From Psilocybe cubensis (Eukaryota), in the NCBI GenBank assembly GCA_017499595.2, contig CM039001.1, positions 1,674,001-1,738,000 on the forward strand: a stretch of 64,000 bases of DNA, written 5' to 3'. Positions 15,996 to 22,962 of this stretch are shown here, in pieces. A program made the translations under genes and the position numbers. The stretch's first letter is position 1. Every line of letters starts with the position of its first letter. The notes below the pieces were generated by a model that worked only from the letters and a program-made list of their open reading frames with translations, did no database searches and had not been told where the DNA came from.

Positions 15996-17515
15996 ATGTA
16001 CAACGGTATCGGTCTGACTACTCCCCGCGGCAGGTTCGGTCGTTTATGGTCTCTTTGTAATAGTCTCTTTCTAATCTCTCTACAGTGGCACAAGCGGCTA
16101 TGTCGTCCGCAACCTTTCTTCACTGCGCGTTCACGAGAGGAACAACGACAAGTCCGCCTGGGATGCTGCTCCCCCAAAGCACAGAGAGCCCGATGAGGCC
16201 ATTCTCGAGCACGAGCGGAAAAGAAAGGTAGAAGTCAAGTGTCTGGAGCTCAGAGATGCCCTCGAAGATAAAGGGTGTGTTGTCTTTTTTATTTTGTATT
16301 CGCTCTGCTCAAACCTACCTAATCATCAGCATTGATGAGGAAATTATCGAAAAACAGGTCGATGACCTTCGCCAAAAACTCCTCGCCAATCTCTCCGCAA
16401 TGGCGCCTCCCTCGCACGGCTTCAAGCCTTCAGATACCCATGGCCAGGCCGCCGCAAAAAAGGTCGAGCTGTCCAAGATGGCCCGTGCATTCGGCACCCG
16501 TGCAGACTACCAAGAAGGAGAGGCATTTGACAGGGAAAAGCAGGAGGAGAATAAAATAAAGCGTATGGCAGAGCGCGAGGAGCGGGAAAGGGCTAGGCTC
16601 GAAAACAAGGCCAAAATGGCCGAACAAAAGGCAAAATGGGAGCAGGAAAGGAAGGAGAGGGATATGCAACGCAAGAAGGAACAAGAAAAGGCGAGAGAAG
16701 AGAGGGCCGATAAAGCTGCAAAGGATATGCCCCCTCCGCCTTTGCCTACTGGTCCAAAAAGGGATTATGTGGATAGGGACAGACCTAGTGACCAAGATTA
16801 TCGACGCAGTCCACCCCCTCGCGGTCCCCCACCACGCAGCAATGTTCGTGGGGGCAGGGACATGCCTCCACCCCCTCGCGGAGACAGACAAGGACCCAGT
16901 GGTCGCTCCAAGCGAGACAGGGGATCTCCATCTAGATCCCCATCCCCACCCCCAAGGAACAGAAGACGCGTGGACTCACGCTCCTCCTCGCGTTCTCGTT
17001 CTCGTTCCCGGTCATCACGCTCACCCTCACGTTCTCCTCCGCGCAACGCATCTCGCCGATCTCGTTCAGCTTCAGCTTCACCTATGCGCATTGCCCCCCC
17101 TTCGTCACATCGCGGACCACCCCCTTCACATACTAGAGGTCCTGGCCCAAGAGGACGTGAACAGAGAGGACGCTCGCTATCCAGATCACGTTCTAGAACT
17201 CCACCGCGTAGAAGACGGGATTCTCGTTCGCCCTCAGTATCGCGTTCAAGATCCAAGTCGAGGTCCCGTTCACCTGGCAGGAGACGCCCACCCTTGCCGT
17301 CGTATCGTTCAGGTTCTCCCCCACCACCTTCGCGAGGTGAACGCCCTCCACCTCCATTACCCACCCCTCGTGACGAAGAACCCGTTCGAGGACGAGAGAG
17401 GGATTCTGGCAAACGAGGTGGCCGATCACGGTCAGCATCCACGGGGTCTTCAATGAGTGTTAGCTCCAGGAGTGAGAGCTCAAGAAGCAGAAGCCGGAGT
17501 GGAAGCCGTGACTAG
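15996..17515 (+). CDS. CWC21: Pre-mRNA splicing factor Cwc21/SRRM2 (cwf21 domain plus RS tail)
   Basis: [47 protein letters not shown], long Arg/Ser-rich C-terminus. Confidence 0.93.
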
Positions 17516-18037
17516 TTGAAGGCTTTACTTTGTGATGGGGTGTCCTGAAATAAAATATACTGATGTTATAACTGACTGGTCTGATCATACCACTTTGAAT
17601 AATTAACTCTTCCCATGCTCGGAGAAATAGGAAACTGAGAGGCTGTTTAATTATTGCAATGCTGAACTGGCAAACGTGTACTATAGGATGCATTGCATCT
17701 GCGAGGTTTCGCCTCTTGCTGCGTTCATCCTCGTTGTTCGCCGTTAACTTGTAAGGGAAATCACAGAATTCCATGCGTGAAATGCTCTGTAACCAGCAGC
17801 GCCCCGGCACAAAAGTACAGCGATGCAAAGCAAGTATGGGTCTTGTTATAAACGGATATGATCATGAGCAAGTTGCAAGCAAGCGCTCGTCAAGGTCTAT
17901 ATCCGACAATTCCGAGCCTCATGACAGGATCCGAACCACTAGCATAAAGCAAAGTGGCTGCTACCACTATTTAACCTCTTCCTCTGTTTCCCCAGGCCGC
18001 GACCACCCAACTCTCCTCTTCCTCCCAACTAACCCTC

Positions 18038-18058
18038 TGACTCATTGTTCTGACTCAT
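18038..18058. promoter_or_regulatory. Tandem Gcn4/CpcA (cross-pathway control) response elements
   Basis: Two TGACTCAT copies (18038-18045, 18051-18058) about 270 bp upstream of an amino-acid biosynthetic gene. Confidence 0.7.
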
Positions 18059-18320
18059 TTGCCTGGAACCAATACTTATACAGTCGCTTTGCGGTCAATT
18101 GATCGGTGGAACGAAAATTTACGCCCCTAACGCGACTTGCCGGTACGTTTCGTCGTTGTCTGTATCGCTCCAAGAACTCATAAAGATGGCTTTTAGACCT
18201 GTACGTACGTTTCTTTATGGCCGCTCTTTCTGTGCAATATTGTCTCGGTCAACCCGAAATTGCAACCTATATTGAAATCCCTGCTTTTCAACAGTTCCAT
18301 AGTCATTTTAACCATCTACG

Positions 18321-20452
18321 ATGAAGCCCAGCCAAAATCTACCTCTACATGCGCTTGCACGCAGGACAGGGAAAATATCTGGGTCTAACAACAACGTACT
18401 CCTTCGCAGTCGTGGTGTAGCTACAGCCGTACGTACCATCACAATCATGGCGCACACCACTACCGTGCCAAGAAGTCACTCTTTACCTATGCACTCATTT
18501 CGCTTTTATGAATTTAGCCTTCCACCGCATACCTTGCCCCCACCCACAAGCCTAAATCCCCACCCTCCGCTGCGACAGCAAATACTTTGGCTTTGGGCAA
18601 GGAGTACCTCCTCCCCGTATACGCGCGGCCCGAGTTTGTCCTAGCCCACGGAAAAGGCTCCTACGTGTGGGACGTCGACGGCAACAAATATCTGGATTTC
18701 AGCGCGGGTATTGCCGTCAACGCGCTTGGACACGCTGATGAAGGCGTATTGCAGGTGTGTATATTTTCCTTTATTCTATTTCTCTACGGCTTTGGGCCTA
18801 TGGGAATAAATGGATACCAAGTATCAATAAATGGCTGGATGGTTGGATATCTCCTGGTGCCCATTGGTTATCAGTGAATCTATTTTGTTTGAGCGATCGC
18901 TGCCGAATTTTATTTTTGCATCTACACTGTTAAAAATAGGTTGGGATGGTGACCCATCCTCCATTCTCGAGGCTCCGAAATCTGTGCTTTGAAACGTTTA
19001 TTTCTCATCATCGAGGGAGTCTGCATCTTATTCCATGGTATTCACTCGACATCTCCCACGTATGGGCATTGATTGCCTCTCCCGGAAATGGGTAGACTTC
19101 GGGGCGGGATGTATCCTGAGTACCGTCGGGTCGGTTACTCGTCGCGTCATGACTCTTTCTTTCCACCATCTTTGATATCGTGTGGAGGACAACTCTGATC
19201 ATTTATTAACCCTATCTTTTTGGTATTCTTAGGTTTTGACAGAACAAGCTGGAAAGCTATTGCATACGAGCAATGTGTACCATAATGAATGGGCCGGAAA
19301 ACTTGCCAAACTGCTGGTCACTCTCACGCAGACTGAGGGAGGACTCGGCTATGCTGCTGGTGCCAAAGCAACTGAAACAGGTTCAGGAGGTGCAAAAGCA
19401 TTCTTTGCGAATTCAGGAACCGAGGCAAACGAAGGGGCGCTGAAAATCGCGCGTAAAGTTGGAAAGGAGCGCTGGGCGGAGGCCAACGGCAAGAGTTGGG
19501 ACGACCCAGCTTGCACCAAGAATCGTATAGCTTGCTTTGAGAATTCATTCCATGGGCGAAGCATGGGTGCTCTGAGCGTCACGAGTAACCCCAAATATCA
19601 GAAACCATTCGCGCCCCTTATTCCTGGCGTGGATGTGGGCAAACTGAACGATTTGGCTGGACTGGAGACCCTGGTGGGCGAGGACACTTGCGCGGTGATC
19701 GTTGAGCCTATCCAGGGTGAAGGAGGTATCAATGATGCCAATGTAGAGTGGCTGCGAGCATTGCGGAAACGATGTGACGCGGTAGGCGCTGTGCTGATCT
19801 TCGATGAGATACAGGTATGTTGATACCCATATGTGTCGAGGTTAGAGTGCTAAAGTGGACCGCGGTAGTGTGGGCTGTATAGGACAGGCACCCTCTGGGC
19901 GCATTCAAGCCTGCCTGCTGAATGTCACCCCGATATTGTGACGATGGCGAAGCCACTTGCGAATGGGTACCCCATTGGCGCGGTCGTGCTGAGGGACAGT
20001 GTTGCAGCTACTATGACACCAGGTATGTGACCATTACAGACAGACGAGATGGCTACTTGACCAAAATAGGTACACATGGGACGACATTTGGAGGATCACC
20101 ACTGGCGTGCGCAATTGGACACTATGTCGTGTCTCGGCTTTCGTCGCCAGAATTTATTAGCAAGATGACGGACACGAGCAAATACCTGGGCGAACGGCTG
20201 GAGGCACTGCCGAAATGGTACCCGGGTCTTTTGGAGGAACGCGTGCGAGGACGAGGACACATCCGGGGGCTCGGATTCAAAGACGTGGAAGTACCTGGGA
20301 GGATCGTAGAACTGGCGCGGGAGCGAGGGGTGTTTGTGCTTACTGCTGGGAAGAATGCGGTGCGACTTGTTCCCAGCCTGAATGTGGGGAAAGAGGAGGT
20401 TGATTTAGCGGTCGATGTGCTTGAAGGCTGTCTGTCTGTATCATATCATTAG
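18321..20452 (+). CDS. ARG8: Acetylornithine aminotransferase, mitochondrial (class III PLP enzyme)
   Basis: [105 protein letters not shown]; Arg-rich acid-free presequence. Confidence 0.92.
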
Positions 20453-20602
20453 CCGGAGAAACATATAGATAAATATAGCCGGATCAGGTGATTTCAAACG
20501 GACGCAATGTGATTGGCTCCCAATTTCCGAGAATAGTAATCTGGCGGGCACAAAAAGCGTGACAGCGCAAATTGGCTTTGACCTGACTCTCCCCCACCCA
20601 CC

Positions 20603-22962
20603 ATGGACAAGCTCTCGTCCCTCACCCGCTTCAAGAAATCCTGTCCCTTCCTGGGCAAGACAAAGACAGCAACCCTTCGCTCGCTGTCCACCGCGTCGTC
20701 CCCGAGGTATCCCTCCTTGTCCGCACTCACCGAGCGCGCTACGAAATGCCCTGTCATGGGCCCTGCTCTCAATGTGCGCTCCAAGGAGATCGTCGCCGGC
20801 TATGCTAGCGTCGCAGCCAATGTCGACGTCGAAAAGATCCACAAGGAAAAGGGCGTCTTCCCCCCGCCCGGCGCTACCGTCGAGATGTGTCCCCATGCCT
20901 CCGCTGCTAGGGCCGCCGCCGTTATGGCCGATGATCTTGCCTCTGCAGCTGCTGCAAAGAAGGGGTCCAAGGCCAAGTCGGATGCAGAGGTCGCTGCTGC
21001 TGCTGGCTGCCCATTCCACGCCAAAGCCGCTGAAGATGCGCGCAAGGCTGCTGCTGCCGCCGCCGCCCCTGTCCCCGCACCCTCGCACAAGGCCAAGCAC
21101 CACACCGGGTTCGACTACGAGAGCTTCTACGTCAACGAGCTCGACAAGAAGCACAAGGACAACTCCTACCGCTACTTCAACAATATCAATCGACTCGCCG
21201 CAAAGTTCCCAATCGCCCACACCGCCAGCGTCAAGGATGAGGTCGAGGTCTGGTGCGCCAATGATTATCTTGGCATGGGTAATAACCCCGTCGTCCTCGA
21301 AACCATGCAGTATGTATTCAAATTACTCTGTTTTTTTTTCTGAACCCTCCTAACTGTTCTGTCTCCCTTTTCTTAGTCGCACTCTTGACAAGTACGGGCA
21401 CGGTGCAGGAGGTACTCGCAACATTGCCGGCAATGGTGCTATGCATCTAGCCCTCGAGCAGGAGCTCGCTAATCTCCACCGCAAAGAAGCTGCTCTCGTC
21501 TTTTCTTCCTGTTACGTCGCCAACGATGCTACGCTCTCTACACTCGGGTCCAAACTTCCAGGCTGTGTATATTTTTCGGACACAATGAACCACGCTTCCA
21601 TGATTCAAGGCATGCGACACTCTGGCGCTAAGCGCGTCTTGTTCAAGCATAACGATCTCGAGGACCTGGAATCTAAACTCAAGCAATATCCCAAGGAAAC
21701 CCCTAAGATTATTGCATTTGAATCGGTGTATTCTATGTGCGGCAGTATCGGACCCATTAAAGAAATTTGCGACCTTGCGGAGCAATACGGCGCACTTACC
21801 TTCTTGGATGAGGTGTGTTCTCTTCTCCTTCGTCATGATTTATTACTCATGCCATATTAGGTTCATGCGGTCGGTTTGTACGGACCCCGTGGTGCCGGTG
21901 TTGCTGAACATCTGGATTACGATGCCCAAGCTGCCGCGGGTGACAGTCCGTTCCCCATCAAAGGCTCCGTTATGGATCGCGTTGATATCATTACTGGTAC
22001 GGATATCATCACGTTTATTGTAGGCCATAACACATTGACAGACGTACTATTACAGGTACTCTTGGAAAGGCTTATGGCGCCGTCGGTGGTTACATTGCTG
22101 GCTCGGTTGACTTTGTGGACATGATTCGCTCCTACGCTCCCGGTTTTATCTTCACCACCTCACTCCCCCCTGCAACCGTAGCTGGTGCTCGTGCTAGTGT
22201 CGTTTATCAGAAGAACTATGTCGGCGACCGTCAATTGAAGCAGGTAAACGTTCGGGAAGTTAAGCGCCGATTTGCTGAACTCGATATCCCCGTTGTGTGC
22301 GTTTGATCCTTCTTCTCTCTGAAATGAAGTGAATTAAGACTGATTATCATTTCATTAGTCCCGGTCCTTCACACATTGTACCTGTGCTTGTTGGTGATGC
22401 TGCCTTGGCTAAAGCCGCGTCGGACAAACTTCTTGCCGAACATGACATCTACGTGCAATCAATCAACTACCCAACCGTGGCGCGCGGCGAGGAGCGTCTC
22501 AGGATCACTGTCACTCCACGTCATACTCTCGAACAGATGGAAGGTCTGGTCAGCGCTGTTGACCAGGTCTTTACTGAGCTCGGCATCAACAGGCTGAAGG
22601 ACTGGAAACTGGTCGGCGGACGCGCTGGTGTCGGCTTGGCAGACGGATCCGAAGAGGTAGCGCCGATTTGGACCGATAAACAGGTTGGCCTCCTCGATGG
22701 TACAACTCCCCCCACCCTGAGGAACGGGGAAAAGGCGATCGTGGACAGTGATGCAGTCGCCAAGGCTCGTGCTGTATTTGACCCACTTTTGGGACCTATC
22801 AGCGGACCCATTCAAGGCACTCGGACTGTGCAAACTGGAAAGAAAGAAGAAGTGGTCGTGCAGGCGAGACAGAAGCTTCCCTTGATCAAGACGGGTGCCG
22901 CTAGTGTTCCTCTGCGCGAGGATATTCCTGTACCGCCTCCTTCCGTCACTGCTTCTGCGTGA
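20603..22962 (+). CDS. HEM1: 5-aminolevulinate synthase, mitochondrial
   Basis: [92 protein letters not shown]. Confidence 0.96.

Follow-up and report, generated by a model that had tools for sequence, protein, structure and literature searches.

Short open reading frames (ORFs) upstream of fungal arginine-pathway genes are known from CPA1/arg-2, whose upstream ORF (uORF) encodes the arginine attenuator peptide (AAP). According to the portions of the sources accessible to us, this uORF is part of the mature mRNA, acts via its peptide and is conserved across fungi, including Cryptococcus and Coprinopsis cinerea (PMC7049704, PMC12230235); in the latter an AAP homologue lies upstream of the arg-2 orthologue (PMC12230235). 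For pine, uORFs are reported on every gene of the arginine pathway (excerpt of PMC12598765). Leaders that combine introns with upstream AUGs are described for repressed genes of the basidiomycete Cryptococcus, whose uORFs are reported in the available text to be conserved between species and occupied by ribosomes (PMC7049704). Our search of a limited library yielded otherwise only general papers on basidiomycete uORFs, and no listed hit dealt with a uORF of a fungal acetylornithine aminotransferase.

Two further systems bear on the locus studied here. General amino-acid control in yeast acts through Gcn4, which recognizes TGACTCA, and ARG8 is counted, in the part of the source available, among the arginine genes with a high-affinity promoter site (PMC8805717). 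Very short internal exons are on record from mushroom-forming fungi: as far as the accessible text goes, in the long-read annotation of C. cinerea about 9% of gene models include an internal exon no longer than 15 nt, in 89 models there is one of at most 3 nt, and uORFs occur in 26% of genes (PMC12230235).

The locus lies in a window of 64 kb, by which we mean the whole stretch of DNA that was analysed, and shares a feature with each of these fungal systems: a short ORF ahead of a gene of the arginine pathway, a leader with introns and upstream AUGs, exact TGACTCA sites upstream of ARG8, and a very short internal exon. An earlier note had proposed the short ORF, 14 codons long and overlapping the ARG8 start codon with its stop, as a new attenuator that senses amino acids. 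We consider it likely that the region forms the 5' leader of an agaricomycete ARG8 gene of mitochondrial type, and that this is an ordinary spliced leader with a 4-nt exon, not a new amino-acid sensor.

Splicing was read from assembled sequencing runs. Five runs were found under one organism label and from two studies, and four of them were compared (X1 to X4). The contigs of X3 and X4 amount to about 41-45 million letters, cover the stretch in one collinear piece and behave as DNA. Those of X1 and X2 amount to about 18-20 million letters; both runs come from one study and are not independent. No run is on record as RNA, the RNA label of X1 and X2 being the index's guess only, and we treat these two as cDNA assemblies because five GT..AG joints are present in them that are absent from X3 and X4. 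As assembled contigs, X1 and X2 show neither transcript starts nor rare isoforms.

Relatives were collected by a protein-guided scan of metagenome contigs, which returned 80 loci: L001 to L022 with 69-87% identity in exon 3, L023 with 58% and the remainder with 50-55%. From the first 22 we compared 14. L003 and L017 were dropped for hit patterns the same as those of L002 and L016, and L005, L007, L011, L015, L019 and L022 for having no or too little upstream DNA; in the last of these, exons 2 and 3 appear joined by splicing, yet the locus begins inside exon 2 and includes no leader. The 14 relatives do not amount to 14 independent lineages, as L008 is near-identical to L010, L004 is close to L006, and a single group is made up of L018, L020 and L021. 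Their main ATGs were read off from the DNA that precedes the exon-2 homology, a match to exon 1 being found only in L001, L018 and L020.

The gene downstream of the leader encodes an acetylornithine aminotransferase (ARG8/argD type, a class-III PLP aminotransferase) of 487 codons, from ATG 18321 to the TAG at 20450-20452. Its coding sequence is open, with no internal stop, once the introns seen in the RNA contigs are removed, and is divided as follows:

18321..18428, + strand: coding exon 1, presumably the mitochondrial presequence (36 codons); 18428 is joined to 18518
18429..18517, + strand: coding-region intron 1, 89 nt, GT..AG, skipped in the RNA contigs
18518..18754, + strand: coding exon 2, with a match to NF002874 and present in the RNA contigs
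18755..19232, + strand: coding-region intron 2, 478 nt, GT..AG, skipped in the RNA contigs; unusually long
19233..19814, + strand: coding exon 3, with matches to TIGR00707 and in the PDB
19815..19868, + strand: coding-region intron 3, 54 nt, GT..AG, from the RNA contigs
19869..20022, + strand: coding exon 4, from the RNA contigs
20023..20069, + strand: coding-region intron 4, 47 nt, GT..AG, from the RNA contigs
20070..20452, + strand: coding exon 5, ending with the stop TAG at 20450-20452

The assignment to the argD family comes from several comparisons. Family models were scanned on single exons, on which whole-protein cut-offs are not reached; exon 3 alone matches TIGR00707 (argD) with an E value of 8e-52 and 176 bits, against 92.6 bits, about half, for the Orn_aminotrans model on the same exon, and exon 2 matches the acetylornithine transaminase model NF002874 (E 5e-16). 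Models of the argD family outscore those of ornithine, putrescine or GABA aminotransferases, and the four best PDB matches are acetylornithine aminotransferases without exception (E 1e-39). In tblastn, the match of coding exon 1 begins at residue 1 in L001 (55% identity), L018 (47%) and L020 (41%), and a TAA at 18309, within the spliced leader, closes the main frame upstream; on both grounds we take ATG 18321 as the start codon. The single ARG8 contig of X1 and that of X2 each skip 89, 478, 54 and 47 nt in the coding region, all bounded by GT..AG, and these four skips are exactly the introns that homology requires.

Coding-region intron 2 is some 5 to 10 times as long as the other introns of ARG8 (47-94 nt). 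The intron at the same position is also long in L001, L002, L008, L010, L018, L020 and L021 (357 to 689 nt) and measures 47-163 nt in the other relatives. Comparison of the 478-nt intron with the relatives' introns at this position gave nothing below E 0.08; similarity among the long introns occurs only within the group of L018, L020 and L021 and between L008 and L010. A scan of 17400-20700 against Rfam, with E values up to 1, returned no match; neither the leader nor this intron thus shows a known RNA. Apart from the contig that joins its flanking exons, X1 and X2 hold no contig within the intron (18843-19175).

Upstream of the start codon, the sequence and the RNA-like contigs give the following arrangement:

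17847..17852, + strand: TATAAA, a possible distal TATA box (a weak hint), lying 23 nt upstream of where the longest RNA contig, that of X1, begins
17870..18142, + strand: first leader exon, minimum extent; the X1 contig runs from 17870, that of X2 from 17964
17921..17947, + strand: 8-codon uORF in weak context (cctcATGA), with the only upstream ATG of the spliced X1 leader; outside the X2 contig
18038..18044 and 18051..18057, + strand: two exact TGACTCA sites (Gcn4/AP-1-type), 13 nt apart
18143..18196, + strand: leader intron 1, 54 nt, gtacgt...ttttag, which holds the upstream ATG of the proposed uORF
18186..18188, + strand: that upstream ATG, preceded in intron 1 by a likely branch site (actcat, by eye) and followed by the acceptor
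18197..18200, + strand: microexon ACCT, 4 nt, between the two sides of the RNA joint
18201..18294, + strand: leader intron 2, 94 nt, gtacgtacgt...caacag, which holds an ATG at 18217
18295..18320, + strand: last leader piece, 26 nt, with the in-frame TAA at 18309

The sequence features given in the earlier note are all present at the positions it names. Direct reading and a script check both confirm the ATG at 18186, in the context aaagATGG, which is strong by its A at -3 and G at +4. The GTACGT donors at 18143 and 18201 and the acceptors ttttag (18195-96) and caacag (18293-94) are in place, with the four letters ACCT between the two candidate introns. Removal of 18201-18294 does yield a 14-codon ORF, the TGA of which (18322-24) overlaps ATG 18321-23 by two bases.

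The second intron that had been suggested, 18143-18196, is used as well. In X1 (contig depth 126.9) and in X2 (depth 50), position 18142 is joined to ACCT and this in turn to 18295; both leader introns are thus removed in these contigs and the predicted 4-nt exon is retained. This joint is absent from the DNA runs X3 and X4, which run straight through. Between 18143 and 18294, the ACCT at 18197-18200 is the only one preceded by AG and followed by GT, and its letters cannot come from either flank by shifting the cut. Splicing of the leader is beyond chance. ACCT is a microexon, an internal segment of no more than 15 nt that is flanked by two removed introns and bounded by AG and GT (ttttag, ACCT, gtacgt). 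The window departs at 17 places in 3.3 kb from the strains sequenced in the DNA and RNA runs, among them 18329-18330, 18260 and 18078; the upstream ATG, the microexon and all four splice sites of the leader are free of such differences.

This microexon resembles those of other Agaricomycetes in being a very short internal exon between canonical short introns in a mushroom-forming fungus (PMC12230235, in the part available). It differs in its place in an untranslated leader, where there is no coding constraint, whereas the microexons of C. cinerea are discussed, in the text accessible to us, by their effect on the reading frame (PMC12230235). The 4-nt leader exon adds to the known microexons, and the ATG within the adjoining intron is unremarkable.

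For the proposed uORF the same contigs have a direct consequence, as the assembled RNA of both runs lacks 18143-18196. Because the ATG at 18186 lies inside the removed intron 1, the predominant mRNA would lack the 14-codon uORF, which would then exert no attenuation on translation of ARG8. The idea that splicing could switch the uORF on or off is borne out for one of its two states: the form without it, its start deleted, is the one that was assembled, and the form that carries it is not among the contigs of X1 and X2, in which minor isoforms and short tips are dropped. Contigs of X1 and X2 are likewise lacking on 18177-18287, which says nothing on minor isoforms.

Conservation points the same way. 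In none of the 14 relatives does a uORF, read unspliced, end on the main ATG, and neither the upstream ATG nor the peptide has a counterpart in them. At the five loci with candidate leader introns (L001, L008, L010, L012 and L018) the upstream 350 nt are entirely free of ATG, so that the 8-codon uORF starting at 17921 is not conserved there either. Many upstream ATGs are found only at loci with short intergenic spacers, where 350 nt reach into the upstream gene. The attenuator claim is therefore unsupported, the start codon being absent from the only mRNA form seen and not conserved among the 14 relatives. In both respects, the start within a spliced-out intron and the missing conservation, the ORF upstream of ARG8 differs from the AAP uORF. 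Its 14-residue peptide presumably does not resemble the AAP either, as the earlier note stated. It also departs from the uORFs of Cryptococcus, conserved and ribosome-occupied in the text available (PMC7049704), in being unconserved and in that its uORF-bearing isoform is not among the contigs.

The overlap of stop and start is unremarkable: the overlapping TGA arises because the second ARG8 codon begins with A, as it does in 10 of the 14 relatives, which also start with ATGA, and at a main start of this kind any ORF ends that opens with an upstream ATG in the frame of that TGA and meets no earlier stop. The chance of such an overlap is estimated at about 1 in 6, from 1/3 for the frame and about 0.5 for 13 stop-free codons. 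The CGA codon before the stop, to which sensing of arginine had been tentatively attached, is the commonest arginine codon of ARG8 (7 of 24), and so offers no obvious pause site.

The leaders themselves have diverged too far for global alignment; a MAFFT alignment of five of them gave a mean column identity of 50% and no reliable register. Similarity was then judged by local alignment against 200 shuffles in 10 relatives. Window positions 18184-18214 match L018 2661-2688, with 1 of 200 shuffles scoring as well, and 18171-18213 match L021 195-237, with 3 of 200. The best local match in L001 (7 of 200 shuffles) is a CT-rich run, and in 7 of the 10 relatives the score was not clearly above the shuffles, 81 to 185 of 200 reaching it. 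The only block of the leader that is similar to distant relatives thus spans the upstream ATG and the microexon with the acceptor before it and the second donor after it, and at the aligned position of the ATG there is ACG in L018, ATA in L021 and, by reading, ACG in L020 as well. By these letters the block may be old, which does not hold for the start codon. In L018 (2661-2688), L020 (about 340-365) and L021 (195-237), the sequence TTTTAG (or ATATAG), 4 nt and GTAYGT stand at the end of an apparent first leader exon, with local similarity to the stretch of acceptor, microexon and donor in the window.

In the reading we prefer, the primary transcript would start upstream of 18142 and carry two short leader introns in tandem around the 4-nt exon. 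Their removal, probably sequential and in the intron-definition mode usual in fungi, would leave a mature leader of at least 209 nt, the length obtained from 17964 in X2, or 303 nt from 17870 in X1. The ATG at 18186, situated in the 3' part of intron 1, would be discarded with that intron, and transcripts retaining intron 1 would be a minor and poorly translated by-product. Control by amino acids would act mainly on transcription, via the paired TGACTCA sites of Gcn4/CpcA type.

These sites deserve some description. An exact TGACTCA upstream of an amino-acid biosynthesis gene is, by its sequence, a candidate Gcn4/CpcA-type element, and the likeness to general amino-acid control in yeast extends to the gene itself, ARG8 (PMC8805717, in the part available). 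The motif occurs 6 times in the whole 64-kb window, against 10.5 expected. A pair is likewise found in the closest relative, L001, where it lies at -443 and -415 (L001 2752-2786) and is flanked as RTGACTCAY. The flanks in the window are C...T, which corresponds to the intermediate RR/YY class in the accessible text of PMC8805717; the sites lie inside the RNA-covered stretch and are putative binding sites. The pair would offer an ordinary route to amino-acid control in this fungus. A TATAAA-type box stands further upstream of the pair both in the window (17847) and in L001 (about 2687).

The window pair falls inside the stretch covered by RNA contigs, which may mean that there are two promoters or that the factor sites lie within a transcribed leader, and which leaves room for a second, proximal start. 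Such a start, downstream of the pair, could fire on amino-acid starvation; if it lay within 18143-18185, the transcript would lack the first donor and keep the uORF. We regard this as unlikely. By reading, L018 and L020 do have a TATAAA-like box some 60-110 nt before the block similar to 18184-18214, which would then be part of a first exon, and alternative use of transcription start sites is widespread in Cryptococcus according to the portion available of 10.1101/2023.07.18.549460. No start within 18143-18185 appears in the RNA contigs, which do not show transcript starts; the corresponding block of the relatives has no ATG, so that the uORF would be specific to this lineage; and a start between 18060 and 18142 fits equally well and still splices the upstream ATG out.

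The surroundings of the gene add some observations on transcript ends. The contigs of the upstream gene end at 17618 and 17643. This gene, which ends in a serine/arginine-rich tail (window 17400-17515), is syntenic in several relatives (L002, L004, L006, L009, L013 and L014), where about 160-300 nt separate it from the ARG8 ATG, versus 808 nt in the window. On the 3' side, the ARG8 contig of X1 continues by more than 2 kb past the stop into the neighbouring transcription unit, while that of X2 ends at 20458 and a separate contig begins at 20587. The neighbouring transcripts 3' of ARG8 (20458-20700) probably overlap or nearly abut.

A second alternative, closest to what was originally proposed, would have intron 1 kept and intron 2 spliced under some condition, so that the ATG at 18186 is translated and the AUGA overlap comes into play; translation of ARG8 would then drop to the level allowed by reinitiation or leaky scanning and follow the supply of amino acids. 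This scenario we hold to be very unlikely. It can draw on the facts that both introns and the 4-nt exon are real, that the strong context and the stop-start overlap are present, and that the leader has local similarity to L018 and L021 around the very block concerned; translationally repressed genes of Cryptococcus, moreover, are said in the accessible text to pair uORFs with alternatively spliced 5' introns (PMC7049704). The same block, however, reads ACG (L018, L020) or ATA (L021) where the start codon should be, the ATG is absent from all 14 relatives and the peptide is without counterpart. To this are added the ordinary origin of the overlap, the frequency of CGA in the gene, and the lack, among the hits listed from the limited library searched, of any fungal acetylornithine aminotransferase uORF.

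The remaining alternative, a single 152-nt leader intron (18143-18294) with the four extra letters as an assembly artefact, is hardly credible: L001 does appear, by reading, to have one candidate leader intron of 122 nt (gtacgt...cctacag) and no 4-nt piece, but the same ACCT, unique in the interval for its AG and GT flanks and not obtainable by a shifted cut, is found in both runs at the depths given, one study though they are.

With the ordinary spliced leader as the preferred reading, the candidate attenuator is removed, and the finding matters little for regulation. What it does provide is the case of a housekeeping gene whose leader makes use of a 4-nt exon that was predicted from sequence alone. 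Exons as short as this will escape gene finders, and upstream AUGs in the intron-rich leaders of fungi must be judged on the spliced mRNA. It is most unlikely that mRNA with the uORF is made conditionally, be it that the 54-nt intron is retained or that transcription starts within it, downstream of the TGACTCA pair, with the AUGA overlap tying ARG8 translation to reinitiation capacity and amino-acid status. If this were true, it would constitute a second, independently evolved point of translational control in fungal arginine biosynthesis: a lineage-specific switch, gated by splicing or by promoter choice, on a gene of the arginine pathway other than CPA1.
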